A stretch of 33,127 nucleotides of DNA from Leptolyngbyaceae cyanobacterium (GCA_035284985.1 JAYKIC010000635.1:1-33127), one strand, 5' to 3'. Positions 10,358 to 29,754 are shown, numbered from the stretch's first letter. Notes: generated by a model not told the origin, from the letters alone. Translations and numbers: made by a program.

Positions 10358-10372
10358 CATTGGAATGGACCC

Positions 10373-11943: not shown

Positions 11944-14157
11944 CTAGGCCACAATACTGATGGAGTGGCCCGATCGCAATTGGATATTATTCCAAGAACA
12001 GATTAACCCCTGTGGGCCTGGATCAATGATTCCGGTGGGCATGGGGGTCCGAATCCAATCAACGCCTTGGCGACGCAGTTCAAACAGGGAAATCGCACCC
12101 AAGTGGTTAATGCCCCCCACCGTTTGCAGCAGGGAAACAATATTGGAGGTGTAGACCGGGTTGCCAAATCTCCACCCTTTCCCATCCGTGCCGCCATTAA
12201 TCGGATTTAAAAAGCGGTAGAGGCGGATCAGGAGCGATCGCTCAATTTCCTCCTGGGCCTGTTGGTTGGCATAGTCGGGGTCCAAGCCCACCTCAATTTT
12301 GACCGATACCCCCACATAATTAGGCTCCTGAATCCGCACCTGGATGCCCAACATGCGCCGCTCATCGAGGAACTCCAGCACATTTTGGCGCAATTCATCG
12401 GAGAGGGTGAACCGCTCAGGACTGAGGCCCATGGCTTGGTCGATGGGAGCCGTATCCACACGGGGCACCACCAGCAAATCAACCGTCCCTTGGCGACCAT
12501 TGCCGGATGACTCCCTCGGACACTGGACCCGGGCAACGGCATGGCTGGACTGGAGGGCCAAGGCTTCAAAATCCTCAGCGGTGATGGCGCGATCGCGGGT
12601 TCGCAGCAAACGCGGCACTCGAATCACGGCATCTTCAAGGGATTCAGCATCAGCCCCATCCCGCGCCGCCTGATGATTGGTGACTTGAGCCACATAGGGC
12701 ACCGCCGACTTAAGAATCCGTAAGGTGCCTGTTTGGACATTGCCCCGATTGCCCCCACCGGATCGATAGGTAGACATCCGAATGATGGCCCCCTTGGGTG
12801 GCACCGCTCCATACTGCCGCTCCATCAACTTCACCGCAGCGGGTTCTAATCCAGTGGCTTCACTGGCAGTCCGTTCGGTGGTTTGGCCTGGGGGCGCTTG
12901 AATTCTGGCCCGTAAACGGGTGTCATCCCGGAGCATGGCAGGTTCGCGCACCAGTGGCCCAAACTGAATCTCTCCGGTGATGGAGTCCAGGGTGTAGTGG
13001 CGATCATCAGGACCAGAGTTGGCAAAATCACTGACTTCTTGCCAATTTTGGGGCAATCCATTGGGTGGGGTGAGAACCAAGTGTTCCGCTTCAGCCTCGC
13101 GGGGGAGGATCTTGCCACTTTGCAATTGGAACCGTTGCCCCGGATTGCCATCGCTTTCGCCCACAATCTCATCGCGGATAATGGCACATTGATGGGCATG
13201 GGCCATGCCGCCAATGGCACGGGCGCTGATCCCCACTAATGTCGGAGAACGGCTGTAGGCGGATTGGTTTTGGGTTTGGTCATAAACGCAGCGCAGCCAG
13301 CGCCCGGTATAGCTGCCGAAGTAGGTGGCAGGCCAAGCCATGGGCAAATGCAAGCGCACGTCTGCGGTTTGAATGCCATTGCCTTCGTTGTTACCCGTGG
13401 TGTCAAAACTAAAGCCACGGGTGCCATCGTCTGCTTCCACTCGCAAAATCGGTTGCCACTGCTGCCCGTTCCACGCTTCCCAGCGGCGGGGCGGGGAGTC
13501 TGGATTGATCCCGGTGGATTCGGCGGGTTCTCCCTGGAGGGTGACGGCAATCACATTGCCGTCTAGGGGTTCGTTTGGATCAAAGACGAGATAGAAACAG
13601 TTGCCGGGTTGGGGGCGATCGCTAAAAATCGTTTGTTCCCGGCCACTCCAGATGCCATCGCTTTCGGACCAGATTGAGGAGAAGCGATCGCGCAAATCCT
13701 GGGGCCGATCCTCTGCCCGTTCCGCCGTCAAAAAATGCCGCACCACCGGAACCCCAATGACCAACGGATGAGTGGTACTAAAAATCACCGCTTCATCCGT
13801 TTCCGTCCGCTCCGTCGCCACCTCCACCCCCGCCGGGATGGTATAGCGCTCGGCACGGGCTGCGGCCAGATAGAAAGTAATATCGGTCTGAGCCGGAGTC
13901 GCCGCCTGTAAGCGAATCCCCAACATTTCCAAAAACGCCACATAGTTACGCCGGGGCACTTGGTTGAACCGTAGCAACATCTGGTCGGTCAGCCAAGCGA
14001 ACATTTCAATCAGGGTAACGCCCGGATCAGCGGCATTGTAGTTAGTCCACTCTGGACAGTAACGGGGAATTCGCAACAAACACTCGTCCACCAAGTCGTT
14101 AAAGGTGCGATCGTCGAGGTCGGATTTGGGTAGTTTGGGGAGAAAATCAAAGTCCAT
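11944..14157 (-). CDS. CIS/phage-tail baseplate protein, Baseplate_J (gp6/gpJ, Afp11/Cis11-like)
   Basis: The N-terminus MDFDFLPKLPKSDLDDRTFNDLVDECLLRIPRYCPEWTNYNAADPGVTLIEMFAWL matches the usual start of putative baseplate assembly proteins in eCIS loci. It sits next to a gp25 gene. The track start at 14256 is a GTG inside a repeat element and is rejected. Confidence 0.85.
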   Translation of the reverse strand: MDFDFLPKLPKSDLDDRTFNDLVDECLLRIPRYCPEWTNYNAADPGVTLIEMFAWLTDQMLLRFNQVPRRNYVAFLEMLGIRLQAATPAQTDITFYLAAARAERYTIPAGVEVATERTETDEAVIFSTTHPLVIGVPVVRHFLTAERAEDRPQDLRDRFSSIWSESDGIWSGREQTIFSDRPQPGNCFYLVFDPNEPLDGNVIAVTLQGEPAESTGINPDSPPRRWEAWNGQQWQPILRVEADDGTRGFSFDTTGNNEGNGIQTADVRLHLPMAWPATYFGSYTGRWLRCVYDQTQNQSAYSRSPTLVGISARAIGGMAHAHQCAIIRDEIVGESDGNPGQRFQLQSGKILPREAEAEHLVLTPPNGLPQNWQEVSDFANSGPDDRHYTLDSITGEIQFGPLVREPAMLRDDTRLRARIQAPPGQTTERTASEATGLEPAAVKLMERQYGAVPPKGAIIRMSTYRSGGGNRGNVQTGTLRILKSAVPYVAQVTNHQAARDGADAESLEDAVIRVPRLLRTRDRAITAEDFEALALQSSHAVARVQCPRESSGNGRQGTVDLLVVPRVDTAPIDQAMGLSPERFTLSDELRQNVLEFLDERRMLGIQVRIQEPNYVGVSVKIEVGLDPDYANQQAQEEIERSLLIRLYRFLNPINGGTDGKGWRFGNPVYTSNIVSLLQTVGGINHLGAISLFELRRQGVDWIRTPMPTGIIDPGPQGLICSWNNIQLRSGHSISIVA

Positions 14158-14161
14158 AGGG

Positions 14162-14203
14162 GTGAGTGGGTGAGTGAGTGGGTGAGTGAGTGAGTGAGTG
14201 AGT
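14162..14203. repeat. Tetranucleotide microsatellite (GTGA/GTGG, about 10.5 units) 5 nt upstream of the baseplate-J start codon
   Basis: GTGAGTGGGTGAGTGAGTGGGTGAGTGAGTGAGTGAGTGAGT is read directly; on the mRNA strand it is (CACT/CACC)n. Confidence 0.9.
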
Positions 14204-14227
14204 TCCTGATTCTCAGCATCTTGCTGG

Positions 14228-14348
14228 TACCTGTTTACTGGAGCCGAAAGACCCACCCCTAGCCCCTCCTTGGAGGGGAATAGACTCTAGTCTAGGTTGT
14301 CCATCAACTGCTATCTCCTCTCTAGAGAGGGGTTGGGGGTGTGTTAAT
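14228..14348. repeat. MITE-like dispersed element, copy 1 (about 120 bp, two internal hairpins)
   Basis: TACCTGTTTA...GACCCACCCCTAGCCCCTCCTTGGAGGGG...ATCAACTGCTA...CTCTAGAGAGGGGTTGGGGGTGTGTTAAT aligns along its length with 18041-18160 and, inverted, with 26481-26596. Confidence 0.8.
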
Positions 14349-14351
14349 GTG

Positions 14352-14376
14352 GGTGCCCAGTCTCTGGCTGGGCACC
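14352..14376. repeat. Perfect hairpin GGTGCCCAG-TCTCTGG-CTGGGCACC (same family as 16431-16486)
   Basis: The 9-bp stem is read directly. A near-identical unit occurs at 16431-16455. Confidence 0.8.
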
Positions 14377-14431
14377 AGTTACCAGTTATTGTTTACTCCC
14401 TAATGTCCTAACTCCAAAACGCCCCAATGCT

Positions 14432-14857
14432 TTAACTCTGGGTGGCATTGAGATAAAACGGATAAACGAGACTCCTGATATCATGACTATCCTTGGGATG
14501 GTAACGAATCACAATGTTGACTAATCCTCGTAGGGGGTCTGGTTCTGTTGCTACTTCATCTAAGACTATCCGAGGCTCCCACTTTTCTAGCGCTTCCTGC
14601 ACACAGAGCCGAATCATCAGTAGGGTCTGTCCATTCATCGGCGCGAAGACTAAATCGGATAACCGACAGCCAAAATTAGGCCGATAAACCCGTTCCCCCA
14701 CCCGCGTTTTCAAGATAATCCGAATTGATTCATCCAGATTATGGCCTCCAGCGGTTAGCTGAAAATTGCCCTGCACACTGAGGCGGACGGGAAATCCCAC
14801 TCCTTGACCCAGGGGACCGTGGTTCCCATTAGCAGCATTGGACAGCGGTTCTGGCAT
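14432..14857 (-). CDS. GPW/gp25-family baseplate wedge protein (Afp9/Cis9-like)
   Basis: 141 aa. SIRIILKTRVGERVYRPNFGCRLSDLVFAPMN is the hallmark gp25 core. Confidence 0.9.
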   Translation of the reverse strand: MPEPLSNAANGNHGPLGQGVGFPVRLSVQGNFQLTAGGHNLDESIRIILKTRVGERVYRPNFGCRLSDLVFAPMNGQTLLMIRLCVQEALEKWEPRIVLDEVATEPDPLRGLVNIVIRYHPKDSHDIRSLVYPFYLNATQS

Positions 14858-15061
14858 TGAATCATCTCCTTAGGCTATCGGGCGATCGGCGCGATGCCCT
14901 ACAGTTTACCGCTTTCCTCTGTATTTCTGGCGGAGAGCAAGAGTCTGTAATGTTGCTGTTACCGTTGTCGTTATCGTTTGCTTTGAGGTAAGGGGCGATC
15001 GCAAAAGACAGCCCTACTTAATGAGGACTATCCTTGCGGTTGGGGACGGGGGAGAGGAGTC

Positions 15062-16312
15062 TCAAGCCGCCTCTGTTACATCTTGTGATGGTTCCCCACG
15101 CCGATATTCATCCAAGCCTTGAGCTTCAATGGTTTTCCAGGTAGCGATCGCCTGCCCAAACTGAGCGTGAAGGAGTTCGAGATCATTGTGGAGGGCCGCT
15201 TCCAATTTTTGCGTTTCCATTGCAATCCAGTTTTCGATCCACTGCTTTTTCAACTGATCGGCTTGGGGTTTGCTCAATCCTTGGACATCAACATCAGGTT
15301 CGGGGCAACGGTCAGGTAAGCTTTCTAGCTCTGCTTGAAAGTGTTGTTTGCGTCCCGCGATCGCCTTGACCCCCAAGTCCTCAAAATCCGCAACTCTCTC
15401 CTGGGCGAAGTGGGCTTGAGTGAGACCCTGCGCCTGTTCTACGCTGCGGATATGGCGCGGAGGCCGGGGGTTAGCCACATACTGAAGACAGGCATCCAAT
15501 CGAACAAGGAGGAGGGCATCGAGAGCTGGGATGGTGTCACCAGGGATGTGAACCTCATAGCCAGGAATGAGTTCACCACAGGCTTCGGGAATCTCGAAGC
15601 GATCGCTTTGGACCTTTGCCACCAAGAGGTTGATGACAATGGGTATGGCCGCACTCGCCAAAGCCAGGGGAATGCCAGCGGGGAAGGAGACAATGAGCGC
15701 AATGATGCCTTCCGCAGTGATGGCAGCGATCGCCATAGCTTTTTCGGACTTGGGTTCTTCGGCCCAATATTGCGCCTCGACTTGCTGCACCAACTCCTTT
15801 TGACACTGATACTGATAGCGTTGGAAAACGGTAGGCTGCTCTAATTCATTGCATTCAGCCCGGAGTTGGGCAAGGGTCTGAAGGACGTTGTAGCGCATCC
15901 GTCGCCGCATGAGATAGCGGGTGGCATAGATATCGGTGAGGACGGCTGAGGCACCCCCGGCGATCGCCCCACCCGCAGCGGCAATGGGTCCGCGCCCGGT
16001 GGCCGAGACGAGGCCCATCGCACTACTGCCGACCACCAGTGCCCCAAAAATTCCCACGGCGGCGGTAATCAAGTGCTGGAGGGGGGCAGGCCAAGCGGAA
16101 CGCTCCACAATACCGAGTTGTTCGCATTGCTGGAGAGCAATGTGTGTGTGACTCATTTCTTCGATATAACCCTTGACCTTGCCGCGATCGTTTTCGCCGA
16201 GGCGCTGCTGGGTGACATCATCTGACAGTAGGAGCCACGCTCGAATCAAGCGAATGAACGTCTGATAGGGTAGGGGGAGATTATGAAATTTTTCTTGCAA
16301 TTTGTCGGACAT
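15062..16312 (-). CDS. Hypothetical membrane protein with glycine-zipper helices and a C-terminal coiled-coil region
   Basis: 416 aa. Two hydrophobic blocks are present: AAVGIFGALVVGSSAMGLVSATGRGPIAAAGGAIAGGASAV (Gly/Ala-zipper-like) and AIAAITAEGIIALIVSFPAGIPLALASAAIPIVINLLV. I recognised no family. Confidence 0.6.
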   Translation of the reverse strand: MSDKLQEKFHNLPLPYQTFIRLIRAWLLLSDDVTQQRLGENDRGKVKGYIEEMSHTHIALQQCEQLGIVERSAWPAPLQHLITAAVGIFGALVVGSSAMGLVSATGRGPIAAAGGAIAGGASAVLTDIYATRYLMRRRMRYNVLQTLAQLRAECNELEQPTVFQRYQYQCQKELVQQVEAQYWAEEPKSEKAMAIAAITAEGIIALIVSFPAGIPLALASAAIPIVINLLVAKVQSDRFEIPEACGELIPGYEVHIPGDTIPALDALLLVRLDACLQYVANPRPPRHIRSVEQAQGLTQAHFAQERVADFEDLGVKAIAGRKQHFQAELESLPDRCPEPDVDVQGLSKPQADQLKKQWIENWIAMETQKLEAALHNDLELLHAQFGQAIATWKTIEAQGLDEYRRGEPSQDVTEAA

Positions 16313-16360
16313 GGTTATTGTCTATCCTGTAGTGAATGTTGGTTAATCCGATTCCCTGTG

Positions 16361-16486
16361 TCCCAGCGTCTCGCTGGGATACTCCCAGAGGCTCTGCCTC
16401 AGAATTGTCTGGAGCCAGAGGCTCTGTTGGGGTGCCCAGTCTCCGGCTGGGCACCAGAGGCAAGTCTCCGGCTGGGCACCAGAGGC
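16361..16486. repeat. Array of GC-rich hairpins and short direct repeats in the intergenic space of the minus-strand cluster
   Basis: Hairpin CCCAGCG-TC-TCGCTGGG lies at 16361-16379. CCAGAGGC occurs four times. Hairpin GGTGCCCAGTCTCCGGCTGGGCACC lies at 16431-16455. GTCTCCGGCTGGGCACCAGAGGC is tandemly duplicated with a 25-nt period (16439-16461 and 16464-16486). Confidence 0.85.
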
Positions 16487-16501
16487 TAGACGGGAGCGGG
16501 A

Positions 16502-17260
16502 CTAGGATTGGGTTTGTCGGGCACGTTCAAAGGTTTGGCGGATGCAGCTTTGATGTTCGGCGACACTGCATATCCGGAGGTTGGGGTTCTGGGCACTGAG
16601 ATCATCTAACTCTTGGCGCAACGTTCCGGTAGGGCCAATGATTGTAACGTGTCCCTTCTGTTTGGTGATTTGGTTGATTTGGCTGCCCAGGATGGTGAAA
16701 TCAAGGGCAGGAAGACCGGGGCCAGGTTCAGCGGCTTGCAGCCAAATGATGGCAGCGATCGGGTAATCGTTTCCGGCGGTGCGTTGGATATCTATTTGGC
16801 AGAGAATGCGGTCCATTAAGACGATGGGAGAGGTTCCGGTGCCTTGGCCGACGGTATTGGGATGGGGCTGATTACTTTTAAAGACGTTACAGCGGGCGAA
16901 CAGTTGGGTAACGTTTTCCACTGCGCTGCTCCGGGTTGGTTCGGTGGTATCGGCAAAGAACAGGTCGATGGCGATGTCGTTGGGTTTGAGGCTCTGGGTC
17001 TGGTTGCGGCAGATGTGGTAGCCGATGGTGGGGTCAGCTAAGGCGGATTGGGAGACATCGCTGGCGAGGATGGCAATCACTTGCACGGTGCGGTACCACT
17101 CGATAATCGGGATGGCTCCAATGATGATGATCAAAGCAATGCCGAGCCAGAGTAGGGGCGATCGCCACAGTGGAGTCTGCTGGTTGGGGGTGGTTTGCCG
17201 TTGGGTGATTCGGCGGCGGCGGGAGCGGGAGCCAGGTGGAGCGAGGGTGGATTGACGCAT
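16502..17260 (-). CDS. Hypothetical N-terminally TM-anchored protein with a degenerate vWA-like alpha/beta domain
   Basis: 252 aa. An Arg-rich N-terminus and a TM helix (LLWLGIALIIIIGAIPII) come first. VIAILASDVSQS (DxSxS-like), GTGTS and AAIIWLQAAEPG follow in the order of vWA strands. The fold call is tentative. Confidence 0.5.
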   Translation of the reverse strand: MRQSTLAPPGSRSRRRRITQRQTTPNQQTPLWRSPLLWLGIALIIIIGAIPIIEWYRTVQVIAILASDVSQSALADPTIGYHICRNQTQSLKPNDIAIDLFFADTTEPTRSSAVENVTQLFARCNVFKSNQPHPNTVGQGTGTSPIVLMDRILCQIDIQRTAGNDYPIAAIIWLQAAEPGPGLPALDFTILGSQINQITKQKGHVTIIGPTGTLRQELDDLSAQNPNLRICSVAEHQSCIRQTFERARQTQS

Positions 17261-17276
17261 AAATTAAGTGTCCTGA

Positions 17277-17462
17277 TTAATTAGAAATGATAGGAGAGGG
17301 ATATTGCTGGTGGGTTGCTGGGGGGTGACTGAGCAGCAGTCCGAGACCGATGCCGAGGATGATTCCGGTGGTGCATCCTATCAGAAATAGGGAGAGGGGA
17401 GGGTGATGGGTGGCTGGAGGCGATCGCTCTTTCCTGGGATAACGATAATGTTGGCGGGTCAT
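17277..17462 (-). CDS. Small single-pass membrane peptide (61 aa)
   Basis: It is packed tightly between neighbours (16-nt and 30-nt gaps) on the same strand and has a central hydrophobic helix LSLFLIGCTTGIILGIGLGLLL. It could still be a spurious ORF. Confidence 0.4.
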   Translation of the reverse strand: MTRQHYRYPRKERSPPATHHPPLSLFLIGCTTGIILGIGLGLLLSHPPATHQQYPSPIISN

Positions 17463-17492
17463 GATGGTTGTGCTAAGTGTTGGGTCTATGGA

Positions 17493-17930
17493 TTAGTCGA
17501 GTTTGGATTGGAGGATGTGCTGGTGGGTGAGGCCAGGGGGCAAGTCCCGTCCGCCTTGGAGGTTGAGTAAGGGGTCCATGCTCTGAATCCGGGCACGTTC
17601 GATAATCTTGTGTTCCTTAGTAGGAAAGCAGGTGACGTAGAGGGCGCTGAGGGGGTTGCTGGAGATGGCCTGCTTTTGGGCCAGCAGTGCTTTAATTTGC
17701 TTGCTGCCGTTGCTGTGCTGGCGTAGGTGATTCTTCAGTCGATCGCGCATACTGCGTTTGGTGCGTCCGACATAGTGGATGTGGTAGCTATTGCTCCAAA
17801 ATCCGCTGGTGTAAGTGGCGATCGCATATACCCCCGATGTATCCAATGTCCTCGGTAGGTTGCTGGTATCGACTTCACCACGGGAGTTGACGGGGCATTT
17901 AATATACTTAGTCCAAGCCATTGGAGTCAT
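17493..17930 (-). CDS. GIY-YIG-like nuclease-domain protein
   Basis: 145 aa. GVYAI ... HYVGRTKRSMRDRLKNH ... KEHKIIERARI ... LLNLQGG follows the GIY-(10-11 aa)-YxG ... R ... E ... N order of the GIY-YIG superfamily. Confidence 0.6.
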   Translation of the reverse strand: MTPMAWTKYIKCPVNSRGEVDTSNLPRTLDTSGVYAIATYTSGFWSNSYHIHYVGRTKRSMRDRLKNHLRQHSNGSKQIKALLAQKQAISSNPLSALYVTCFPTKEHKIIERARIQSMDPLLNLQGGRDLPPGLTHQHILQSKLD

Positions 17931-18040
17931 TCCTTATTTTTGAAGGGATTAAACGATTAATAAAAAAGACAGCGCACAGCGTTTACGCCAGAGCGATCTT
18001 CAGAAAGATGGTGTTGTCCCCATTCCAGCGTTCAAAAGCG

Positions 18041-18182
18041 TACCTGTTTAGCGAGGCCGAAAGACCCACCCCTAGCCCCTCCTAGGAGGGGAAAAATGCT
18101 AGTCTAAATTGTTTATCAACTGCTAGCTCCCCTCTTGAGAGGGGTCGGGGGTGTGTTAATCACGTTGACGCTAAACACGTAC
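18041..18182. repeat. MITE-like dispersed element, copy 2 (longest copy)
   Basis: It is in the same orientation as copy 1. Its extension CACGTTGACGCTAAACACGTAC is shared only with inverted copy 3. Confidence 0.8.
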
Positions 18183-18207
18183 TCAAAAGCTGTATGTGTT
18201 TAGGCGT

Positions 18208-18432
18208 TTAGTCAGCGGTTTCCTCTTCTATCAGGCCATTGACGCTTTTACCCTTCTCGGTAACAAGGGGCAGTGGCATCGAATTGCCACTGGGTGCAAC
18301 GATCACTGGGAGAGGGGTATTGGGAAGGAACAATGCAGTCGTGCTCGATAACGCCCCGACCAGGTTAATCACGGTGATGATGGGTCCAGAGCGTTTGGCG
18401 ATCGCGTTCAAATGATTGCGAAGTAAGGACAT
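18208..18432 (-). CDS. Hypothetical small protein (74 aa), divergent from the VMAP-MoxR-vWA operon
   Basis: A strong Shine-Dalgarno sequence (AAGGAGG) lies 5 nt upstream of the ATG on the minus strand. I recognised no family. Confidence 0.5.
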   Translation of the reverse strand: MSLLRNHLNAIAKRSGPIITVINLVGALSSTTALFLPNTPLPVIVAPSGNSMPLPLVTEKGKSVNGLIEEETAD

Positions 18433-18591
18433 AGTGCCTCCTTAATGTCAGTAGGTTGTAATTAGGCCAATGGGATCACTTTCGCTTCGGTTACATCAGG
18501 AGATGTTGACCTCTCGTGTAACGTCTTTTGTGGAATGGTTTCCCGTTGCTCTATGTCAACTATCATGGAGGTTACAGGTGGGTGAAGTCAT

Positions 18592-18713: not shown

Positions 18714-18751
18714 TTCCAGGTCGATGGTCATTGTGAGGCGGATTGAAGTGT

Positions 18752-21441: not shown

Positions 21442-21444
21442 CCC

Positions 21445-24171
21445 ATGCTGGCGGATTTGCTGGCTATCTTCAAAGCCTCTGGTCTCCTGGGTGATGATGT
21501 TGGCGAGGAGGGGCAGCCTCAGACAATTCCCTTGTTGAATGACGAGGATATTTTGGATGCGTTGTGGTTGGCTTTGCAGTTGCCGTCTGGTCAGGCTGAT
21601 CTCCTGCAATCGCTGCCCACTCTGGCTCCAGAGACTGATGCTAGAAAAGTGTCTGAGGGACCAGAACCGATACCGTCTGGCTTTGATGACGCGAGTGACG
21701 TAGGATTGCCCGCCGCTAATGCATATTTAGAGTCTGGCCCAACAAAGTCTGATGGGGTCGATCCTGAATCGCTCAAGGACGAAGGCTTGCCGATCAAAGT
21801 ACAGGAGGCTCCGGCGTTGCGTGAGGCTCGTGATATTGGTCGGGCATTGCGGCCATTGCGTCGGAAGGTGCCGTCGCCCTCGCGTCAGATGATTGATGAG
21901 GCGGCGACGGTGGATCAGATTGCTCGACAAGATATTTGGGTACCCGTACTTCAACCTGCCTTGGAGCGATGGTTGGACCTAGAACTGGTGATTGAAGCAT
22001 CCCCCTTTAGTTTTATTTGGCAGTCTACCCTAAAGGACTTTCGTCACATTCTGGAGCGTCAAGGGGCGTTTCGCACCGTGCGGAGTTGGACCTTAAAACA
22101 GGGAAACGATGGTCCGCGCATCTGGCCTCGACATCAAGATTGGCAGTCTGGGTCGGGTCGGAGCTTGGATGAGCTGATCTCAGCCTCTGGGCGTAGTGTG
22201 ATTATGGTGGTGAGTGACTGTCGATCGCCCTTATGGTCAGGGGAAGTGTGGGAATCGACAGATACGGCATCGCCCCCTATGGACTGGTATGGGTGGTTAC
22301 ATCGTTTGAGTCACAAAATGCCGACAGCCGTTGTGCAGTTGTTGCCGGAGTGGTTGTGGCCGGAGAGTGCGCTTGATCTGGGCTATGGGCTGAGCGTTCA
22401 TGCTCGATCCCGTGGTGTGCCCAATTCCCGGTTGGTGATGGATGATGTGCCCCTTTGGGAGCGGGTTGAGGCTCCCCATGCCTTGTTACTCCCGGTGATG
22501 CCGTTGTTGGCCTCGGCGTTAAAACAGTGGGCACAGGTGATTGCCGGACGGAGTGACTATCAAGCCTCGGCCCGGTTATTTGATCGTGCCTGGGTGGGCG
22601 ATCCTCATCGGCCTCGGCGGTCGGGGTCTCGCTTTGGAGTGGAAGCGTCGGCAGCAGAACGGGTGGAGTACTTTTTTGCGACGGCTTCTCCCTTGGCCCA
22701 ACGATTAGCGATGATGATGGCGGTGGTTCCGGTGGACTTGTCTGTGGTGCATTTGATTCAAGAGACTCTGTTGCCAGAATCTAATTATGTCCATGTGGCC
22801 GAGGTTTACAGTAGTGGGCTGTTGGCTTCAATGGCTTCGTCTGATAGACCTGTCCGAAAATTGGGGTGGAGTACCGCAGCGGGTACTCCACCCCAATTTT
22901 CGGACGACTCTGATGGGGATCGGGATGGGGGAGAGGATGGGAGGCATTATGCTTTTGTGCCCGGAGTGAGAGAGATATTAAATCAGTTAACCTCCGTGGA
23001 GGATGCGAAGGCGGTATTACATGAGTTATCCCAGGCCATTGCTGCTCGTTTGGGTTTGCCCCCGATCAAGCATTTTTCCGCGTTGTTGTTGCCTCAAAAG
23101 GAGTGGGACCAAGCTCAACAGGATGCCATTCTACCGTTTGCTCGGATTACGACTGGAGTGTTGTACCAGTTGGGGGGGGATTTTGCGGCATTAGCAGATG
23201 TGGTAGTAGAAGGGGTGAATGAGTGGGTGATGGACTCTGATCTGTTTGCAAGATTTCCACCGTTGCAACCTTTGGAGTTTGACACGGTTCAGCTACAGAT
23301 CCAAATCCCCACTACAGATATTGGTGCGGCTACACCAGCGGTTCAAACGATTGACTTTGAATATGTCACCTTGGAGCAGCAGCAACAGCGTTGGGTTGCT
23401 GTGCGTCATCCCGCTCAAGCCCGACGGTACGTGGAACCCCTGACCAATAATGTGGGTTTAGAGATGGTGTTGATTCCGGCTGGTACCTTCATCATGGGTG
23501 AAGGAAGTCAGGAGCATGAAGTGTCCGTGTCAGCGTTTTACATGGGCAAATACACGATTACCCAATCTCAATGGAAAGTGGTAGCAGCAATGGATGCGGT
23601 GAATCAAAAGTTGGACGCTGATCCCTCCCGCTTCAAAGGCGATAATTTACCCGTAGAGAGCGTGTCTTGGAATGATGCCGTAGAATTCTGCCAGCGGTTG
23701 TCTCGCTATACGGAGCACGAATATCGTCTCCCTAGTGAAGCCGAATGGGAATATGCCTGTCGAGCCGGAACCACGACGGCCTTTCATTTTGGTGAAACGG
23801 TTACAACGGATGTGGCTAACTACAATGGCAATTACACCTATAACAATGGACCTAAAGGTAGATATCGAGAAAAGACGATCGCTGTCGGTAGCTTAAATGC
23901 TCCTAATGCATTTGGGTTGCACGATATGCACGGAAACGTGTGGGAGTGGTGTGAGGATGACGATCATGCTAGTTATGCCAATCCCCCAACCGATGGCAGT
24001 GCTTGGGTCGATACTCCTCGTGGAAGCTCCCGTATCCTACGCGGCGGGTCTTGGGGCTTCGATCCTGATTATTGTCGTTCCGCGTATCGTGACGATCGAA
24101 CTCCCGGCAATCGCAACCTCAACATTGGTTTTCGTGTTGTTGTCTCCGCCCCAGGACTCAGTAGCTCTTAG
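21445..24171 (+). CDS. Multidomain protein: N-terminal helical module, vWA-like domain and C-terminal FGE-sulfatase (FGS, C-type-lectin fold) domain
   Basis: 908 aa, starting 3 nt after the MoxR stop. The vWA-like strands WLDLELVIEASPFSFIW (MIDAS Asp replaced by Glu) and SVIMVVSDCRSPLW are present. The C-terminal domain shows MVLIPAGTFIMG ... RLPSEAEWEYACRAG ... LHDMHGNVWEWC ... LRGGSW ... CRSAYR ... IGFRVV, the FGE-sulfatase signature. Confidence 0.85.
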   Translation: MLADLLAIFKASGLLGDDVGEEGQPQTIPLLNDEDILDALWLALQLPSGQADLLQSLPTLAPETDARKVSEGPEPIPSGFDDASDVGLPAANAYLESGPTKSDGVDPESLKDEGLPIKVQEAPALREARDIGRALRPLRRKVPSPSRQMIDEAATVDQIARQDIWVPVLQPALERWLDLELVIEASPFSFIWQSTLKDFRHILERQGAFRTVRSWTLKQGNDGPRIWPRHQDWQSGSGRSLDELISASGRSVIMVVSDCRSPLWSGEVWESTDTASPPMDWYGWLHRLSHKMPTAVVQLLPEWLWPESALDLGYGLSVHARSRGVPNSRLVMDDVPLWERVEAPHALLLPVMPLLASALKQWAQVIAGRSDYQASARLFDRAWVGDPHRPRRSGSRFGVEASAAERVEYFFATASPLAQRLAMMMAVVPVDLSVVHLIQETLLPESNYVHVAEVYSSGLLASMASSDRPVRKLGWSTAAGTPPQFSDDSDGDRDGGEDGRHYAFVPGVREILNQLTSVEDAKAVLHELSQAIAARLGLPPIKHFSALLLPQKEWDQAQQDAILPFARITTGVLYQLGGDFAALADVVVEGVNEWVMDSDLFARFPPLQPLEFDTVQLQIQIPTTDIGAATPAVQTIDFEYVTLEQQQQRWVAVRHPAQARRYVEPLTNNVGLEMVLIPAGTFIMGEGSQEHEVSVSAFYMGKYTITQSQWKVVAAMDAVNQKLDADPSRFKGDNLPVESVSWNDAVEFCQRLSRYTEHEYRLPSEAEWEYACRAGTTTAFHFGETVTTDVANYNGNYTYNNGPKGRYREKTIAVGSLNAPNAFGLHDMHGNVWEWCEDDDHASYANPPTDGSAWVDTPRGSSRILRGGSWGFDPDYCRSAYRDDRTPGNRNLNIGFRVVVSAPGLSSS

Positions 24172-24211
24172 TACTCTTGTTCTCTTTCTTTCCGTCTATC
24201 TGCCTCTTGTC

Positions 24212-24282
24212 CCCCTCCTCGGAGGGGTTAGGGGTGGGTCACAATCGTCCCCCCACCGCTCGTGTGTCCCCCCTGCTTTTGG
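24212..24282. repeat. 71-bp direct repeat, left copy, flanking the DUF559 gene
   Basis: It matches 24783-24853 at 70 of 71 positions (a single A/C difference) and contains the CCCCTCC-TCG-GAGGGG hairpin. Confidence 0.9.
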
Positions 24283-24317
24283 GAACACTAGAGCAGCACC
24301 TATTCACTCTTTTTTCT

Positions 24318-24740
24318 ATGCCTTATCCCATCATTCCCTACAATCCAAAGCTGAAAGAACGTGCCCGACAACTGCGTAAAAACATGACCGCAGGGGAGCG
24401 AAAACTATGGCAACATCTCAAGGGCAAGCAAATGATGGGCTATGATTTCGATCGCCAACGCCCCATTGACCAATTTATTGTGGATTTCTATTGCAAATCT
24501 CTCATGCTGGCGATCGAGATTGATGGTTCCTCCCATGATAGTGCTGAAGCTCAAGAGCGCGATCGTATCCGTCAATCCCGAATTGAGTCTTTTGGTGTAC
24601 AGTTTTTAAGATTCCAAGATCGGGAGGTGCTCCATCAAACGGATCAGGTGCTCACGGCGATTCAGCAATGGATTGAGTCTCGATGTTCAAAGGTGGAGCA
24701 GAACCCACCCCCTGCCCCTCCCCAGAGGGGTGTTGATTGA
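24318..24740 (+). CDS. DUF559 (Vsr-like endonuclease fold) domain protein
   Basis: MPYPIIPYNPKLKERARQLRKNMTAGERKLWQHLKGKQMMGYDFDRQRPIDQFIVDFYC ... LAIEIDGSSHD ... RDRIRQSRIESFGVQFLRF is a classic DUF559 sequence. I chose the ATG at 24318 because the upstream part of the track ORF lies in repeat DNA. The C-terminal tail reads into a repeat unit. Confidence 0.85.
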   Translation: MPYPIIPYNPKLKERARQLRKNMTAGERKLWQHLKGKQMMGYDFDRQRPIDQFIVDFYCKSLMLAIEIDGSSHDSAEAQERDRIRQSRIESFGVQFLRFQDREVLHQTDQVLTAIQQWIESRCSKVEQNPPPAPPQRGVD

Positions 24741-25035
24741 TTTGTAGGTGTTGGAAGTTGTGTGTATGGTCAGTCTCCGGTTCCCCTCCTCGGAGGGGTT
24801 AGGGGTGGGTCACAATCGTCCCCCCCCCGCTCGTGTGTCCCCCCTGCTTTTGGTGTGGCATTTGACCCACCCCCTGCCCCTCCAAGGAGGGGTGTTGGTT
24901 GATTTGTGGGTGTTGGAAGTTGTGTGTATGGTCAGTCTCCGGTTCCCCTCCTTGGAGGGGCTAGGGGTGGGTCATCTTTCGTGTGTTGAGCAAGCAGAAC
25001 CCACCCCCTGCCCCTCCCCAGAGGGGTGTTTTGGT
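24700..25035. repeat. Tandem array of about 130-165-bp composite repeat units (includes the right 71-bp direct repeat at 24783-24853)
   Basis: ACCCACCCCCTGCCCCTCC..GAGGGGTGTTG.TTGATTTGT.GGTGTTGGAAGTTGTGTGTATGGTCAGTCTCCGGTTCCCCTCCT.GGAGGGG.TAGGGGTGGGTCA starts at 24703 and 24866, and partially again at 24999. Confidence 0.85.
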
Positions 25036-25104
25036 CAACCCCGAAAACTTTCCGTATTTTTCTGAGATAGGGGAGGTGATGTTTTACCGTAAATGATGGG
25101 ATAG

Positions 25105-25269
25105 GCAGATAAACGCGGCGGGTCTTGGAACAACAATCCTGATAATTGTCGTTCCGCGTATCGTAACAATCAAACTCCCGACAATCGCAACAACAACATT
25201 GGTTTTCGTGTTGTTGTCTCCGCCCCTTCGCGTCAGCGTCTCCGGCAGGAGAAACACTCTTCCGTTTAA
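25105..25269 (+). pseudogene. Orphan 3' fragment of an FGE-sulfatase (FGS) domain gene
   Basis: A frame opening just after a TAG at 25102-25104 reads [39 protein letters not shown]. That is the last approximately 39 codons of the FGS domain as found at the ends of 21445-24171 and 25501-26316. It has no start codon and no upstream domain. Confidence 0.8.
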
Positions 25270-25500
25270 GGTGAAGAGCCTTTGGCCAGAACTGGCAGGT
25301 GGGAATCTGTCAGGCGTGCAAGTGAAGAGTCCAGCCCTATTCCAGTGATGACATGACTTTACCCACCTCTGACTCCTCCCAGGAGGAGAATAAGTGGGGA
25401 GAGGATGTGTGATCCAAATATCAACCGGAGCCAGGGGTCTTGGTAGGATTATCCGAAGAGTTGTCTGGCTCCACCCCTTATTTAAGCGAACGCACCCCTC

Positions 25501-26316
25501 ATGGCTGAACTCACGCTGGTTCCCGAACGGAAACGGACTCAATACTATGTGGAAGACCTGGGCGGAGGCATCACGATGGATATGGTGTTGATTCCGGCTG
25601 GGACGTTTATGATGGGGTCTCCAGAGGATGAGCGAGACCAATCCGATGAAGGTCCACAGCATGAAGTTACTCTCCCGCAATTCTTTATGGGCCGCTACCC
25701 CGTGACGCAGGCCCAATGGAAACAGGTTGCTGGGATGCCAGAGGTGAATCAACGCTTAGAGGCTGATCCCTCTGAGTTTAAGGGTGATACCCATCCGGTT
25801 GAGCGAGTCAGTTGGCATGATGCAGTGGAGTTTTGTGCCCGTCTCTACCAGCATACGAATCGAAACTATCGTTTGCCGAGTGAGGCTGAGTGGGAATATG
25901 CCTGCCGAGCTGGAACCGAAACCCCATTTTATTTTGGTCCGACCATCTCTACTGACTTAGCCAATTACGATGGTGACTACACGTATGGGGATGGCCCCAA
26001 AGGTGAATATCGAAAGCGAACCACCCCTGTAGACCATTTTCGCTATGCCAATGCCTTTGGCTTGCATGATATGCATGGCAACGTCTGGGAGTGGTGTGCG
26101 GATCACTGGCATTCAAATTATGAAGAGGCACCGACAGATGGAAGTGCCTGGATCGAAGGCAGAGACAGCGATCGGACAGTTATACGCGGCGGGTCTTGGC
26201 TCTTCAATCCGGCTGCTTGTCGTTCCGCGTATCGTAACGATCGTATTCCCGCCCATCGCTACTACGACATCGGTTTCCGTGTTGTTGTCTCCGCCCCAGG
26301 ACTCCGTAGCCCTTAG
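25501..26316 (+). CDS. Stand-alone FGE-sulfatase (FGS) domain protein
   Basis: 271 aa. MVLIPAGTFMMGSPEDE ... RLPSEAEWEYACRAG ... LHDMHGNVWEWC ... IRGGSW ... CRSAYRNDR ... [12 protein letters not shown]. It aligns along its whole length (many identical blocks, roughly two thirds by eye) with the C-terminal domain of the 908-aa protein. Confidence 0.88.
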   Translation: MAELTLVPERKRTQYYVEDLGGGITMDMVLIPAGTFMMGSPEDERDQSDEGPQHEVTLPQFFMGRYPVTQAQWKQVAGMPEVNQRLEADPSEFKGDTHPVERVSWHDAVEFCARLYQHTNRNYRLPSEAEWEYACRAGTETPFYFGPTISTDLANYDGDYTYGDGPKGEYRKRTTPVDHFRYANAFGLHDMHGNVWEWCADHWHSNYEEAPTDGSAWIEGRDSDRTVIRGGSWLFNPAACRSAYRNDRIPAHRYYDIGFRVVVSAPGLRSP

Positions 26317-26384
26317 TACTCTTGTTCTTTTTCTTTCCGCCTTCCGCCTCTTTATTATTTTTCTGTAGAAATTTAGAGTTGGGG

Positions 26385-26660
26385 GTTGGGGATTGTGACC
26401 CACCCCTAGCCCCTCCCAGGAGGGGAAGTGGGAGTGGGGAAGTGGGGAGTGGGGATTGTGACCCACCCCTAGCCCTCCTTGTATGTGTTTAGCGTCAACA
26501 TTAGTAACACACCCCCGACCCCTCTCAAGAGGGGAGCTAGCAGTTGATAAATACCTCAAACTAGAATTTATCCCCCTCCTGGGAGGGGAAATGGGAGTGG
26601 GGAAGTGGGGATTGTGACCCACCCCTAGCCCCTCCCAGGAGGGGAAGTGGGAGGGGCTAG
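26385..26660. repeat. Composite repeat cluster: 46-bp direct repeats bracketing an inverted MITE-like copy 3
   Basis: GGGGATTGTGACCCACCCCTAGCCCCTCCCAGGAGGGGAAGTGGGAG occurs at 26388-26433 and 26607-26652, with a truncated copy at 26449-26478. Positions 26481-26596 are the reverse complement of 18080-18182. GGGGA(A)GT heptamer runs are also present. Confidence 0.85.
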
Positions 26661-26783
26661 GGGCGCGATCGCCCCTCTGCCTTAGCGATTATCCCCCCGA
26701 AAAGATAGGTCAGTGTGGGGGAAAGAAGAGGGCGATCGCCTTTTCCTTACACGATTTTAGGGGGCGATCGCCATCACAAACCC

Positions 26784-27209
26784 CTATCCTTCTTGCTCTT
26801 TTTTCTGTTTTTCCTCTAACTCTTTCTGCTTTTCCTCCGATTCCTTCTTCATCGCATCCATCTGAGCCTGTACCGCTGGCGGCGGCGGCACCGGAGTGCC
26901 CATATCGCCAACCAAAACATTGGGCTGTCCCTTCACAATCGTTGTGGCGACGGGGATCGGTACTCCTAGGGGACCAATGGTCAGACCATTAACCATCGAT
27001 GTGATCCGTGCGGCGGGTCGTCCACCAATCAAAACCGTAAATGCGCCCGTGGAGATAATGCCAGGGGCGTAGTTGATCACTGGACCGTAGACCATATCCC
27101 CAACACAGGCAGCGGGCATTCCCCCAATTAACACATTGGGTGTACCGGGTGGCAAGACATTATCTCCGGTAGCGGTGATATCAGTGACTCGTGCGGCTGG
27201 AAACGTCAT
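26784..27209 (-). CDS. PAAR-domain spike-tip protein with a charged K/E-rich C-terminal tail
   Basis: 141 aa with three PAAR-type motifs (FPAARVTD, GGMPAACVGD, GGRPAARITS). It lies immediately downstream of the VgrG-like gene. Confidence 0.9.
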   Translation of the reverse strand: MTFPAARVTDITATGDNVLPPGTPNVLIGGMPAACVGDMVYGPVINYAPGIISTGAFTVLIGGRPAARITSMVNGLTIGPLGVPIPVATTIVKGQPNVLVGDMGTPVPPPPAVQAQMDAMKKESEEKQKELEEKQKKEQEG

Positions 27210-27304: not shown

Positions 27305-29200
27305 TTAATTCAGCTTAATCAATCCCCCTTGCACTTGGACGATTCCCCCTTTCACCTCGGTCATCGCCCCCCCTTGAATTTTAACGGTCGTACCTGCCTG
27401 AATCGTAATACCACTCATAGACAGTTCTACCTTGTTGGCCCCAACAGTGAGAGTAATTTTCTGAGTCCCAGTGAGGCTGATCTCTCCCGCATTGAGGCTA
27501 ATTTTATTGCTGGTTCCCGTCCCCCCTGCTTTGATAGTGATATCTCCGGTGGACGTGAGGCTAATAGTTTTGTTGGCATCGTCATTTCTAAGGGTATGGC
27601 CACCATTGGTTTTTAATTCCACAAACTTATCACTATCGTTGAGAGAAAAATGATGGTTTCCGGTGGTGTCTAAATACACGCCTTTTTTAGAACCACCTTT
27701 GTCTTCTTCCCTGAATTGCAGGGTGTGACCTGTGCGAGTTCTGAAGGTGCGGAGGCGGACTTTGCCATCGGCGACAGAATCCTGGACTGCTTCTGGAGGC
27801 TTGTCCTTGCCGTTCCAGACAGCCCCAATGATATAAGGGCGGCGAATGTCCCCATGTTCAAACGCCACTAAAACTTCATCATCCACTTCAGGCAAACAAT
27901 CAAAGCCTCGGTTAAGACCAGCTCCGGGGGCGACAATCCTAGCCCAATTACTTTCATGCTCTTCGGTGAGGGTGGGAAATTTCACCCGGACACGGCCCCA
28001 GCCTTGGGGATCATTGTTATTAGTGACTCTGCCTACGAGGAGGGTCTGTCCCGGTTGGGGGCGGTTGGGTGGTGTGAGGAGTGACAATAAATCGCCCCCC
28101 CGCAATCCTCGGACGCTAAATTCGGTGGTGTAAACCCGCTCGATGAATAGGTGACGGGTTTCGGTGATGTAATAGTCGCCGCTGTATTTGCCCATGCCGT
28201 CGAGGGTGATGACTTTGCCGGGGCGGATGTCGGGGTTGCCTTGGGCGATCGCATCCGCATGGATAAACTCACTGCCCAGCTCATCAATCAGGGCTTGGGC
28301 GATCGTGTCCGCTTCTTTTTGGCTAAATACAGGCTGATCGACTACCACCAGCGTGGGTGAGGAAGGCTTTCCCCCAAAGGCGCTACTACTTTCTTTTCCC
28401 CGGCCCTGATCCGTCTCAGTTAGAACGTTGGCAGAGTTCCGGGTGGCGACAAAGGGCTGCTTTTTAGTGTAATCCCAACCGCGCACTTCCACACTACCCA
28501 CCTGCTCAGCACTGTTAACCTGAACTTGAAAACTACTGATTTCTTTAAGCCAACGTAGATTGAGTGTGCTATTCACATTGGGTTTACGGAAACTGAGCTT
28601 GCCATTTTCCACAAATAGCTCGAATCCATTCCGCGCTGCCCGGTCCCGCAAAAACTCCATATTGGTTTGGTTGGATTGGAAGACATAATCATGGGGGGCA
28701 CCGCTGTTATCCACCGTACCCAGGGGAATCCCATTTTCCTGGACCACTTCCGAAACAATGTCGCTGTCAGTATAATTTTGAAAGGAGCGATTGTGGCGAC
28801 CGCGATGCAACCGATGGGAGACATCATAGCCCCGAATAATCAGGGGTGCTTGGGCACCGGAGGTAAAGTGGGTTTCCATGGCGGTGATCTCCCCTTCAAT
28901 CACCGTACCCTCAATTTGGTCGTCAAATTCGACTGACTCGGTGGTGCTGGACTTAAAGCCAATTTTGACCACTTGACCAATCTTGAAAAAACTCTCGTAT
29001 TTATCCCGTAGGTTTGATTCTTCTGCCTGTCCAGGGAAATAGGGCGATCGCACCACCAACGTGAACATGCCCGGTCGATGTAGACTCTCCTCCACCGACA
29101 GTTGCAGCAAATCTTCCAGTAACGCCGCCATGATTTCGTCGGGGGGCGTTCTACCATCAATCTGGATAATGGGTTCGGAAATATAGCGGCTAGGGCACAT
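27305..29200 (-). CDS. VgrG-like spike protein (gpD plus gp5 OB-fold plus beta-helix; Afp8/Cis8-like)
   Basis: 631 aa with a gpD-like N-terminal half. GRVTNNNDPQGWGRVRVKFPTL ... WARIVAPGAGLNRGFDCLPEVDDEVLVAFEHGDIRRPYIIGAVWNG is the gp5/gpV OB-fold core. A repetitive beta-helix-like C-terminus follows. Confidence 0.9.
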   Translation of the reverse strand: MCPSRYISEPIIQIDGRTPPDEIMAALLEDLLQLSVEESLHRPGMFTLVVRSPYFPGQAEESNLRDKYESFFKIGQVVKIGFKSSTTESVEFDDQIEGTVIEGEITAMETHFTSGAQAPLIIRGYDVSHRLHRGRHNRSFQNYTDSDIVSEVVQENGIPLGTVDNSGAPHDYVFQSNQTNMEFLRDRAARNGFELFVENGKLSFRKPNVNSTLNLRWLKEISSFQVQVNSAEQVGSVEVRGWDYTKKQPFVATRNSANVLTETDQGRGKESSSAFGGKPSSPTLVVVDQPVFSQKEADTIAQALIDELGSEFIHADAIAQGNPDIRPGKVITLDGMGKYSGDYYITETRHLFIERVYTTEFSVRGLRGGDLLSLLTPPNRPQPGQTLLVGRVTNNNDPQGWGRVRVKFPTLTEEHESNWARIVAPGAGLNRGFDCLPEVDDEVLVAFEHGDIRRPYIIGAVWNGKDKPPEAVQDSVADGKVRLRTFRTRTGHTLQFREEDKGGSKKGVYLDTTGNHHFSLNDSDKFVELKTNGGHTLRNDDANKTISLTSTGDITIKAGGTGTSNKISLNAGEISLTGTQKITLTVGANKVELSMSGITIQAGTTVKIQGGAMTEVKGGIVQVQGGLIKLN

Positions 29201-29217
29201 CGCAACACTGACTCCAT

Positions 29218-29754
29218 TTATATAAACCGTTCTCGCCCGGAAGCCGCCCGTTGAGCGGCACTGAGGGCCGGAGCAGACTGTCCGGGACGCGGGGTGGGTT
29301 CATCCACCTGCTCTAGGGTCAAATCCACGAGGGCACGAACGGGGGTACCGTCCGGCAAAAATAGGGTGAGCTTGAAACTCAGGGTCTTGACGAAACAACG
29401 CAAATACTCATTTGCACCCCAAGTAAAAAGATAAATGGGAGGCCGTTTGTTGGCTTCCTCGCCATCCTGCATAAATTCCACCCCACGGGCAAATTTGCGA
29501 ATATAGGGACGCACACTCACCTGATCTTCGTAGGTGTCTAGCACAATGTTACTAATGGTGAGCGAGTAGGGGTTGGGGTGCTTAAAGCTGGTTTTGGGTT
29601 CTCCAGTATTAGTGCTAGCCCCTTGGGGTTGTTCCAAACTAATGGAGCGGCTAAAGCTCAATTCATTTGGATTAAACATAAAATCAATATGATTTTCGTG
29701 GTTTTCGCTGGACTGATATTCCACATCAATTAACTTGGCCTTGGCTAGTGTCAT
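29218..29754 (-). CDS. CIS tube-protein-fold / tube-initiator-like protein (Afp7/Cis7-like, no LysM seen)
   Basis: 178 aa. IDFMFNPNELSFSRS ... PPIYLFTWGANEYLRCFVKTLSFKLTLFLPDGTPVRALVDLTLEQ matches the pattern of CIS tube N-terminal domain proteins found just upstream of VgrG in eCIS loci. The call is by recall. Confidence 0.7.
   Translation of the reverse strand: MTLAKAKLIDVEYQSSENHENHIDFMFNPNELSFSRSISLEQPQGASTNTGEPKTSFKHPNPYSLTISNIVLDTYEDQVSVRPYIRKFARGVEFMQDGEEANKRPPIYLFTWGANEYLRCFVKTLSFKLTLFLPDGTPVRALVDLTLEQVDEPTPRPGQSAPALSAAQRAASGRERFI

Follow-up and report, generated by a model that had tools for sequence, protein, structure and literature searches.

Among described contractile injection systems (CISs), two offer the closest comparison for the locus analysed here. 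CIS-Sc of Streptomyces coelicolor is a cytoplasmic, type IId system (9GTP/9GTR) encoded by 19 contiguous genes, SCO4242-4260 (PMC12237407). The thylakoid-anchored CIS of Anabaena sp. PCC 7120 (all3313-all3327; 7B5H) is also encoded by a contiguous cluster; its Cis11 of 1,231 amino acids (aa) carries cage and anchor domains, and effectors with the DUF4157/eCIS_core domain are encoded beside the cluster (PMC8894136). Here, we analysed a stretch of 33,127 nucleotides (nt) from Leptolyngbyaceae cyanobacterium (GCA_035284985.1 JAYKIC010000635.1:1-33127), called the window and numbered over its whole length, which shares the baseplate parts Cis7/8/9/11 with CIS-Sc and holds homologues of Cis7/8/9/10/11 of the Anabaena system. 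Unlike the S. coelicolor cluster, the window contains five CIS genes split by 11.9 kb, with PAAR present and no Cis12, sheath or CisA gene nearby. We consider it likely that the intervening DNA is a strain-variable island of conflict-system genes, unrelated to the CIS, at a natural boundary between the spike and baseplate modules; the locus then comprises a spike module (tube initiator, VgrG and PAAR) and, from a baseplate module, its first two genes (gp25 and J). The split is ordinary genome plasticity in the form of a strain-polymorphic island, and not a new kind of system. The CIS genes and the island lie as follows:

29218-29754, minus strand: Cis7-like tube initiator of 178 aa (CIS_tube, PF19266; Pfam, 82.7 bits)
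27305-29200, minus strand: VgrG/Cis8 spike protein (Pfam Phage_base_V and Phage_GPD)
26784-27209, minus strand: PAAR/Cis10 protein of 141 aa (Pfam PAAR_motif)
14872-26786, no strand assigned: island proper, 11,915 nt missing from a compact haplotype (blastn against contigs L184 and L188, described below)
14432-14857, minus strand: gp25/Cis9 baseplate wedge protein (GPW_gp25, PF04965)
11944-14157, minus strand: Baseplate_J/Cis11 protein of 737 aa, counted from the ATG at 14157 (PF04865; NCBIfam TIGR02243, 622 bits)

The open reading frame (ORF) listing and the Pfam matches bear out these minus-strand positions, which a preliminary description made from the sequence alone had already given. Its label 'tube-initiator-like' was fair: the top match of the 178-aa protein in the PDB is the 'tube initiator' 8KEA_P, followed by the Cis7-type LysM proteins 9GTP_P and 7AEB_M, though the protein itself has no LysM domain. 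The Baseplate_J ORF extends to 14256; because almost all relatives align from residue 34 of this longer ORF, the ATG at 14157 (reading cctATGgacttt) is the true start, as that description had placed it. The closest solved relative of VgrG is the CIS-Sc spike 9GTR_q of S. coelicolor (E 2.5e-52). Baseplate_J matches S. coelicolor Cis11 (9GTP_1K; E 3e-116) far better than Anabaena All3317 (E 1e-4), and VgrG behaves likewise, so the lineage lies near type IId; the Anabaena CIS is distant from the window genes in both Cis11 and Cis7 (E 1.5e-3 for the latter). From the PAAR stop to the gp25 start we measured 11,926 nt, in line with the earlier figure of about 11.9 kb of genes on both strands, and this interval holds nine predicted genes, three on the minus and six on the plus strand. 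A point missed before is that the CIS genes are flanked by non-CIS genes, ExbD/ExbB upstream and aldose epimerase/gyrB downstream (Pfam).

To place the interruption, 97 loci were fetched from species genomes with VgrG and J as queries, and all window proteins were mapped onto them. Cyanobacterial relatives such as Laspinema (L046), Potamolinea (L090) and the metagenome-assembled genome (MAG) of Cyanothece sp. SIO2G6 (L002/L018) share the order tube initiator-VgrG-(PAAR)-gp25-J at 52-95% aa identity. The last of these is the nearest relative (81-95% aa identity) and reads tube-VgrG-PAAR-gp25-J-epimerase, with PAAR and gp25 only 191 nt apart; the DNA homology of the window to it ends at ~26906 and restarts at ~14955. 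The other 96 fetched CIS loci contained no homologue of the genes that separate PAAR from gp25 in the window. Looking up exact matches to the gp25, PAAR and tube-initiator proteins then retrieved near-identical contigs, two of which represent the compact haplotype: L184 (Logan, SRR21894929) and L188 (JGI metagenome 3300007216). Both are >99.7% identical to the window (L188, 99.8% over 3,013 nt of tube-VgrG-PAAR) and lack window positions 14872-26786, with the same junction, GAAGAAGGAGACGCTTAAAGTGCCAGAACC, in both; in blastn they align to window positions 27242/29799-26787 and then from 14871 on. The join lies inside an AAGGAG microhomology common to the PAAR end and the gp25 ribosome-binding site, and the 143-aa compact PAAR ends with a TAA stop, followed by one base and then the GTG start of gp25.

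Because L184 and L188 lack this segment, the island is a presence/absence polymorphism among very close strains: one strain carries it, others do not, and its exact junction is known. The preliminary description had read the interruption as a large insertion or recombination hotspot and had proposed examining PAAR-gp25 adjacency in relatives; the contiguous genes of L002, the abutting ones of L184 and L188, and the 96 loci free of island genes support that reading. The same genes conserved in related CIS loci, which it had named as the contrary pattern, were seen in 0 of the 96.

Across the fetched loci the site of the island is variable. In the 45 loci with both genes, the gap between VgrG and gp25 ranges from 24 nt to 9.4 kb with a median of ~830 nt, which is room for one PAAR gene, and 17 of 62 judgeable loci have ~9.5 kb upstream of gp25 without VgrG; the genes there are a heterogeneous, non-CIS set in which 68 ORFs carry 123 Pfam families, including UvrA, EF-G and sensor kinases. 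Long gaps usually contain genes for large eCIS_core (formerly DUF4157) proteins, whose toxin modules are Ntox1, DUF6782 or DUF922 (Pfam). With a purpose-built hidden Markov model (HMM), eCIS_core genes were located in the gap itself at seven loci (L008, L010, L014, L052, L054, L055 and L060) and just upstream of gp25 at two (L023 and L041); within the gap they occur on either strand. As eCIS_core genes occupy the gap between spike and baseplate, the cargo slot of this lineage lies mid-cluster and not at the cluster end. The domain is regarded as typical of CIS effectors (PMC8894136). The papers we consulted contain no description of mid-cluster cargo slots or of split cyanobacterial CIS clusters. 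The variable junction also indicates that the island sits at a module boundary and not inside an indivisible operon. Thus the earlier view of an interrupted structural operon holds in that the genes are split, and fails in that the site is not the middle of one indivisible unit; similarly, the five-gene contiguity it assumed applies to Afp and PVC and not to the cyanobacterial relatives, where the VgrG/PAAR-gp25 junction varies. The island would be tolerated because the PAAR-gp25 junction is a natural boundary between modules that are separately movable across cyanobacteria.

The two modules are probably transcribed separately. An 18-nt element, CTCGACYTTTGGCGAATA, occurs on the sense strand 55-270 nt upstream of gp25 in 43 fetched loci (within the span L003-L094), with a -10-like box ~20 nt downstream of it, and also three times upstream of VgrG. 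A search of 185,579 species genomes returned 120 exact matches, of which 101 lie <500 nt upstream of a gp25 homologue; among the remainder, 6 leave no room to judge and 13 are not followed by a CIS gene within 500 nt, those of the 13 with displayed titles being non-cyanobacterial. This distribution suggests that in most cyanobacteria gp25 is the first gene of a regulated unit of its own, which would explain why the cluster breaks at gp25; a regulator of the baseplate module may bind at the element.

The plus-strand part of the island encodes a ternary system built around a VMAP protein, together with the remains of a diversity-generating retroelement (DGR), whose template repeat (TR) matches two variable regions (VR1 and VR2) in genes with an FGE-sulfatase/C-type-lectin-like (FGS) domain:

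18743-20359, plus strand: VMAP protein with a VMAP-C domain (Pfam PF20028, 80 bits), in the part of the window with the lowest G+C content (GC)
20338-21441, plus strand: MoxR-type AAA+ ATPase (AAA_5/bpMoxR), 57-62% identical to MoxR of L107 and L114
21445-24171, plus strand: vWA-type protein (SAV_2336 N-terminal) fused to FGS (NF041121, 382 bits; FGE-sulfatase, E 3e-50)
24039-24152, plus strand: VR1, at the 3' end of the vWA-FGS gene, with 12 of 12 mismatches at TR adenines
24177-24740, plus strand: DUF559 gene (Vsr-like endonuclease fold; Pfam PF04480, E 3.7e-32), embedded in repeat copies
25113-25226, plus strand: TR, which reads in frame and matches VR1 and VR2
25501-26316, plus strand: stand-alone FGS (Pfam PF03781, E 4.6e-60), carrying VR2
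26184-26297, plus strand: VR2, at the 3' end of the stand-alone FGS gene, with 15 of 19 mismatches at TR adenines

Cyanobacterial VMAP ternary systems with DGR-diversified FGS domains were described by Kaur, Burroughs, Iyer and Aravind in 2020 and are predicted to be conflict or cell-death systems of multicellular bacteria (PMC7159879). The window gene set is of just this cyanobacterial type, with VMAP-C, MoxR and vWA-FGS in order and an adenine-specific TR/VR pair. The vWA component was assigned through NF041121, as no Pfam vWA model scored; full-length relatives of the fusion, 42-44% identical, occur in L107 and L114, where the VMAP-MoxR-vWA order is kept, and the gene set of the window qualifies as a ternary system. 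The arrangement VMAP-MoxR-vWA-FGS-FGS, with the stand-alone FGS after vWA-FGS, is found without CIS genes in five genomic contexts (L103, L104, L107, L114 and L138). The TR is 80-81% identical to repeats that follow the reverse transcriptase (RT) genes of L114 and L107, and is itself followed by a conserved element of ~66 nt (25284-25351) common to both. Immediately before the homologous repeat these relatives carry bAvd and/or RT, with L114 having bAvd and RT at the place of DUF559. In the window, we found no RVT_1 or bAvd match and no ORF with YxDD, and tblastn searches with RT or Avd from L114 and L107 gave no match there. Unlike the published systems, then, that of the window has DUF559 and repeat copies in place of RT or Avd and is sited between CIS genes; the avd and RT genes would have been replaced by the DUF559 gene and these repeats.

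The three minus-strand genes of the island form a second cassette next to gp25:

17493-17930, minus strand: small GIY-YIG nuclease-like gene (Pfam GIY_YIG_2, E 3.9e-6)
16502-17260, minus strand: 252-aa protein with an N-terminal membrane anchor and no family match (Pfam, PADLOC, NCBIfam)
15062-16312, minus strand: 416-aa membrane protein of a very rare family (5 clusters among 5.8 billion)

A pattern scan of species genomes for relatives of the 416-aa gene was empty, and a protein search then gave four distant ones. In four metagenome contexts, none with CIS genes, the 416-aa homologue follows a homologue of the 252-aa protein; across L098-L102 this homologue precedes the 416-aa one, and the 252-aa protein of the window is 59% identical to it. 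L102 further encodes a GIY-YIG homologue, 40% identical, upstream of its CHAT gene. As an observation on these loci, L098-L102 share a five-gene set of CpXC-TPR-CHAT, an unknown protein of 395-444 aa, DUF1822, and the homologues of the 252-aa and 416-aa proteins; the latter two families are unannotated and very rare. Judged by gene order and similarity, the minus-strand cassette looks like a cluster of this type minus its CHAT-DUF1822 core. PADLOC gave weak partial matches only for the island proteins. Taken together, the island would be a mosaic of a CHAT-less GIY-YIG/252-aa/416-aa remnant and a VMAP/MoxR/vWA-FGS system with a TR and two FGS targets, and its genes are foreign to CIS loci.

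The content of the island bears on whether the intervening genes could instead be CIS accessories or cargo, with a CisA-like membrane firing adaptor and a vWA-MoxR-FGS cell-death trigger forming one functional unit with the injection system. CIS-Sc, the nearest solved relative, depends on a membrane adaptor and brings about cell death under stress (PMC12237407); in the window, the 416-aa and 252-aa membrane proteins lie on the CIS strand directly upstream of gp25, the same slot houses eCIS_core effector genes in relatives, and VMAP ternary systems are themselves predicted conflict or cell-death systems (PMC7159879). We nevertheless regard such a unit as very unlikely: 0 of 96 other CIS loci have a homologue of an island gene, the homologues occupy loci without CIS genes, and near-identical island-free strains keep their CIS genes under purifying selection. 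Moreover, most of the island coding sequence is on the opposite strand, and no eCIS_core domain was detected in the window by Pfam, tblastn or the purpose-built HMM, whereas the long VgrG-gp25 gaps of the cyanobacterial relatives hold eCIS_core toxin genes and that of the window holds conflict systems.

The locus resembles the vgrG/PAAR islands of type VI secretion systems (T6SS), in which a variable gene set lies directly downstream of the spike and tip genes, with content that differs between strains and conserved flanks. Unlike these, the window content includes no effector/immunity pair and no recognisable toxin, and its downstream flank is a structural baseplate gene. A stronger proposal, that the PAAR-gp25 site is a dedicated exchange slot whose content is wired to the CIS, with the FGS sensor and the membrane pair firing a CIS-Sc-like particle and so killing the infected or stressed cell, is in our judgement a long shot; if true, an exchange slot swapped by recombination on its structural flanks would link DGR-diversified sensing to CIS-mediated cell death.

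Short repeats accompany the island, as the preliminary description had noted for the right junction and for the sequence beyond gp25. Their reality is borne out by a count: the 33 kb holds 12 copies of a 19-mer core, all of them within 14251-26668, against 0.02 expected from shuffled sequences. Being short, non-coding and dispersed in several copies with terminal inverted repeats, the elements qualify as miniature inverted-repeat transposable elements (MITEs); they fold end to end through these inverted repeats (z about -2.7). Full copies measure ~120 nt, and shorter units lie at 24199-24282, 24697-25030 and 26374-26660. Three stretches (no strand assigned; from sequence repeats and folding) mark out the family:

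14227-14348: MITE-like element between gp25 and J, found in both haplotypes
18040-18182: MITE-like element between the two divergent cassettes, sharing 86% identity with the copy at 14227-14348 and 88% with the inverted one at 26481-26588
26374-26660: MITE-like array at the right island edge, including the inverted full copy at 26481-26588

The left junction (14858-15061) is free of this repeat family, again as described before. A search for target-site duplications, which the same description had suggested, found none: the only direct or inverted repeats common to both island junctions are 8-9-mers at chance level. Rfam and tRNA scans of the window gave no matches.

Dispersed repeats of this kind raise the question of whether the split is an assembly artefact, that is, a chimeric MAG contig joined through MITE-like copies. 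The window is a complete 33,127-nt MAG contig, its repeat clusters at 18.0, 24.2-25.0 and 26.4-26.7 kb coincide with places where Logan contigs break, and the interior genes were found on no other contig. Two contigs from an independent assembly (SRR13425444) speak to this directly. L183 equals window positions 17323-14252 at 100% identity and carries, in order, the genes for the 252-aa and 416-aa proteins and gp25; L185 equals 28825-26624 at 100%, covering VgrG, PAAR and the right flank, and ends inside the repeat array. L183 crosses the left junction, which has no repeats, and so confirms it from a second assembly; because L183 joins gp25 to the 416-aa gene, gp25 is not beside PAAR in that strain, whatever the interior. 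The left breakpoint (~14955 relative to L002, 14872 relative to the compact haplotype) falls outside the repeats, and the order VMAP-MoxR-vWA-FGS-TR-FGS is the same as in related genomes. An artefactual split is therefore extremely improbable.

The direction of the event is less firmly set, and the sequence upstream of gp25 is central to it:

14895-14953, minus strand: gp25 leader with blocks ACATTACAG ... GGTAAACTGTAG and a -10-like TAAACT, shared with L002 and lost from the compact haplotype

The window and the outgroup L002 keep this leader of ~100 nt (ACATTACAG ... GGTAAACTGTAG ... AAGGAG), and because it is missing from the compact form, that form is itself derived by deletion. The compact PAAR frame reads through the stretch that aligns to the gp25 ribosome-binding region. 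In the window, PAAR ends in a Pro/Lys/Glu-rich extension of 39 aa, DMGTPVPPPPAVQAQMDAMKKESEEKQKELEEKQKKEQEG (26784-26905), which the PAARs of L002 and L090, both 102 aa long, do not have; the compact PAAR is extended as well, by 41 aa running through the former gp25 ribosome-binding site. The simplest account is a single whole-island deletion from an island-bearing ancestor. The island would have accreted in that ancestor, and the compact strains would have lost it by one 11,915-nt deletion between AAGGAG microhomologies, which would also have taken the gp25 leader and coupled gp25 translation to PAAR. In the window strain, the retained leader would drive transcription of gp25-J, and tube-VgrG-PAAR would be read from a start upstream, with the other CIS genes presumably located elsewhere in the genome. 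We rate loss of the island in the compact strains at about even odds.

The converse order, in which the compact PAAR-gp25 arrangement is ancestral and the island a recent en-bloc gain (through recombination with the DNA of a donor strain or MITE-associated transposition), is possible but, in our view, less likely than not. It agrees with the sampling (the compact form in two samples, the island form in one), with the difference of only ~0.2% between the two forms in the spike flank, with the restriction of the MITE-like repeats to the island and its edge, and with the deviant GC of part of the island, 44-46% in the VMAP region (18-20 kb) versus ~52%; the rest has 50-57%, like the flanks. Set against these are the derived state of the compact form, which lacks a leader kept by both the window and L002, the failure to find a mobility gene or a target-site duplication, and the signs of decay in the island (loss of avd/RT, an FGS fragment, the CHAT-less cassette and several MITE insertions), which imply age; this internal decay suggests that the island is not brand new. 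A recombination breakpoint at the compact junction was also considered, as the gp25 side is more diverged than the spike side (Fisher p ~1e-7); the claim was dropped because the signal came mostly from the unconstrained spacer, and in coding sequence the counts are 3/426 (gp25) versus 6/2433, all synonymous.

All five CIS ORFs are intact, as first described, and are under purifying selection. Relative to L002, at a synonymous divergence (dS) of ~1, the ratio of non-synonymous to synonymous divergence (dN/dS) is 0.03-0.10 (0.03 for the tube initiator at 95% aa identity, 0.05 for VgrG, 0.03 for gp25 at 94% identity and 0.095 for Baseplate_J), similar to 0.076 for the neighbouring aldose epimerase. 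Between the haplotypes, the tube, VgrG and gp25 genes differ at 10 nt, namely the gp25 start codon (ATG in the window, GTG in the compact form, the gp25 protein being otherwise identical) and 9 synonymous sites. With 9 of 9 non-start differences synonymous, these genes are maintained with or without the island.

These values also bear on the idea that the five genes are a stranded, functionless remnant whose interruption is without consequence. The five genes are a fragment of the usual cluster, which runs from a gp19 tube gene through tube initiator-VgrG-(PAAR)-gp25-J to P2_I, DUF4159 and more: unlike most cyanobacterial relatives, the window lacks the gp19 tube upstream and P2_I/DUF4159 downstream, and L002 is without both extensions too. 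The conserved element upstream of gp25 is lost, no sheath gene was found, and housekeeping genes stand directly after VgrG in L001. A remnant is nevertheless unlikely given dN/dS of 0.03-0.10 over a dS of ~1, equal to that of a housekeeping neighbour, the intactness of all ORFs in three lineages, and haplotype differences in tube, VgrG and gp25 that are all synonymous but for the gp25 start codon.

Some observations weigh against a strain-variable island lodged between two CIS modules, or against parts of that account. No sheath, gp19-type tube or Cis12/P2_I gene was found in the 33-kb window, and the CIS is known here from its genes alone; a search for Cis12 homologues gave 921 matches, and among the best 120 of 921 none was attributable to the source MAG. 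The element CTCGACYTTTGGCGAATA is absent from the window (14858-15300) and from L002, where the best match has 8 mismatches, at chance level, so the argument for a separate promoter is weaker for the window lineage. An island-free ancestor followed by a small deletion and an insertion requires the same number of events as the deletion account, so that parsimony does not polarise the change, and we found no integrase, transposase (Pfam), tRNA gene or target-site duplication that would account for the arrival of the island. The island interior (17323-26624), which passes through three repeat clusters, is covered by the MAG contig only, and exact-protein look-ups for the stand-alone FGS (FGS2), GIY-YIG, vWA-FGS and MoxR proteins gave no other contig. 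Among further look-ups, that for the 737-aa J protein returned nothing, and the JGI collection, scanned with part of the 416-aa gene and with the compact junction, gave no match to either; as that junction exists in the JGI contig L188, the collection is non-exhaustive and both nulls are uninformative.

In cyanobacterial CIS-Sc-like clusters, the spike and baseplate modules act as separable units, with their junction the usual site of toxin cargo genes, and loci of this kind will be overlooked or cut short in surveys that demand contiguity of the core genes. The haplotype pair, with and without the island and otherwise ~99.8% identical, is a natural test of whether CIS expression is affected when gp25-J is separated from the spike genes, and the presence of CTCGACYTTTGGCGAATA before gp25 in >100 genomes gives a concrete handle on the regulation of cyanobacterial CISs.

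Several further features of the locus and its relatives were recorded. The two nearest species-level relatives, L001 and L002, show rearrangements elsewhere in this module: L001, which is as near as L002, has rhodanese, creatininase and lumazine synthase genes directly after VgrG (3013-13010), and L002 has a methyltransferase between VgrG and PAAR (11896-12959) and an RTX-repeat gene between J and the epimerase (16536-18485). ExbB-ExbD (29857-31496) lies directly upstream of the CIS module in both the window and a compact strain (L186), and in an unrelated MAG (L085, 7451-8675) it lies directly upstream of gp25-J with no spike genes between; this proximity could be coincidence or a conserved neighbourhood. 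At the other end of the window, an integrin-beta-type VWA protein with RTX repeats (309-2060) is followed by a 522-aa ORF (2186-3754) without a family match. A second small repeat, the hairpin GGGTGCCCAGTCTCYGGCTGGGCACC, occurs in the gp25-J spacer (14351-14378) and twice between the 416-aa and 252-aa genes (16430-16457 and 16455-16482), and heptamer-like CACTCAC repeats stand just upstream of the J start codon (14160-14199). Finally, the vWA-FGS frame contains a palindromic element of ~95 nt (22844-22936), which falls in the linker joining the SAV_2336-N domain to the FGS domain. Its two arms of 24 nt, 22852-22875 and 22882-22905, complement each other perfectly; an unrelated site in L002 (5690-5787) shows 77% identity to the element, which may be an in-frame MITE.

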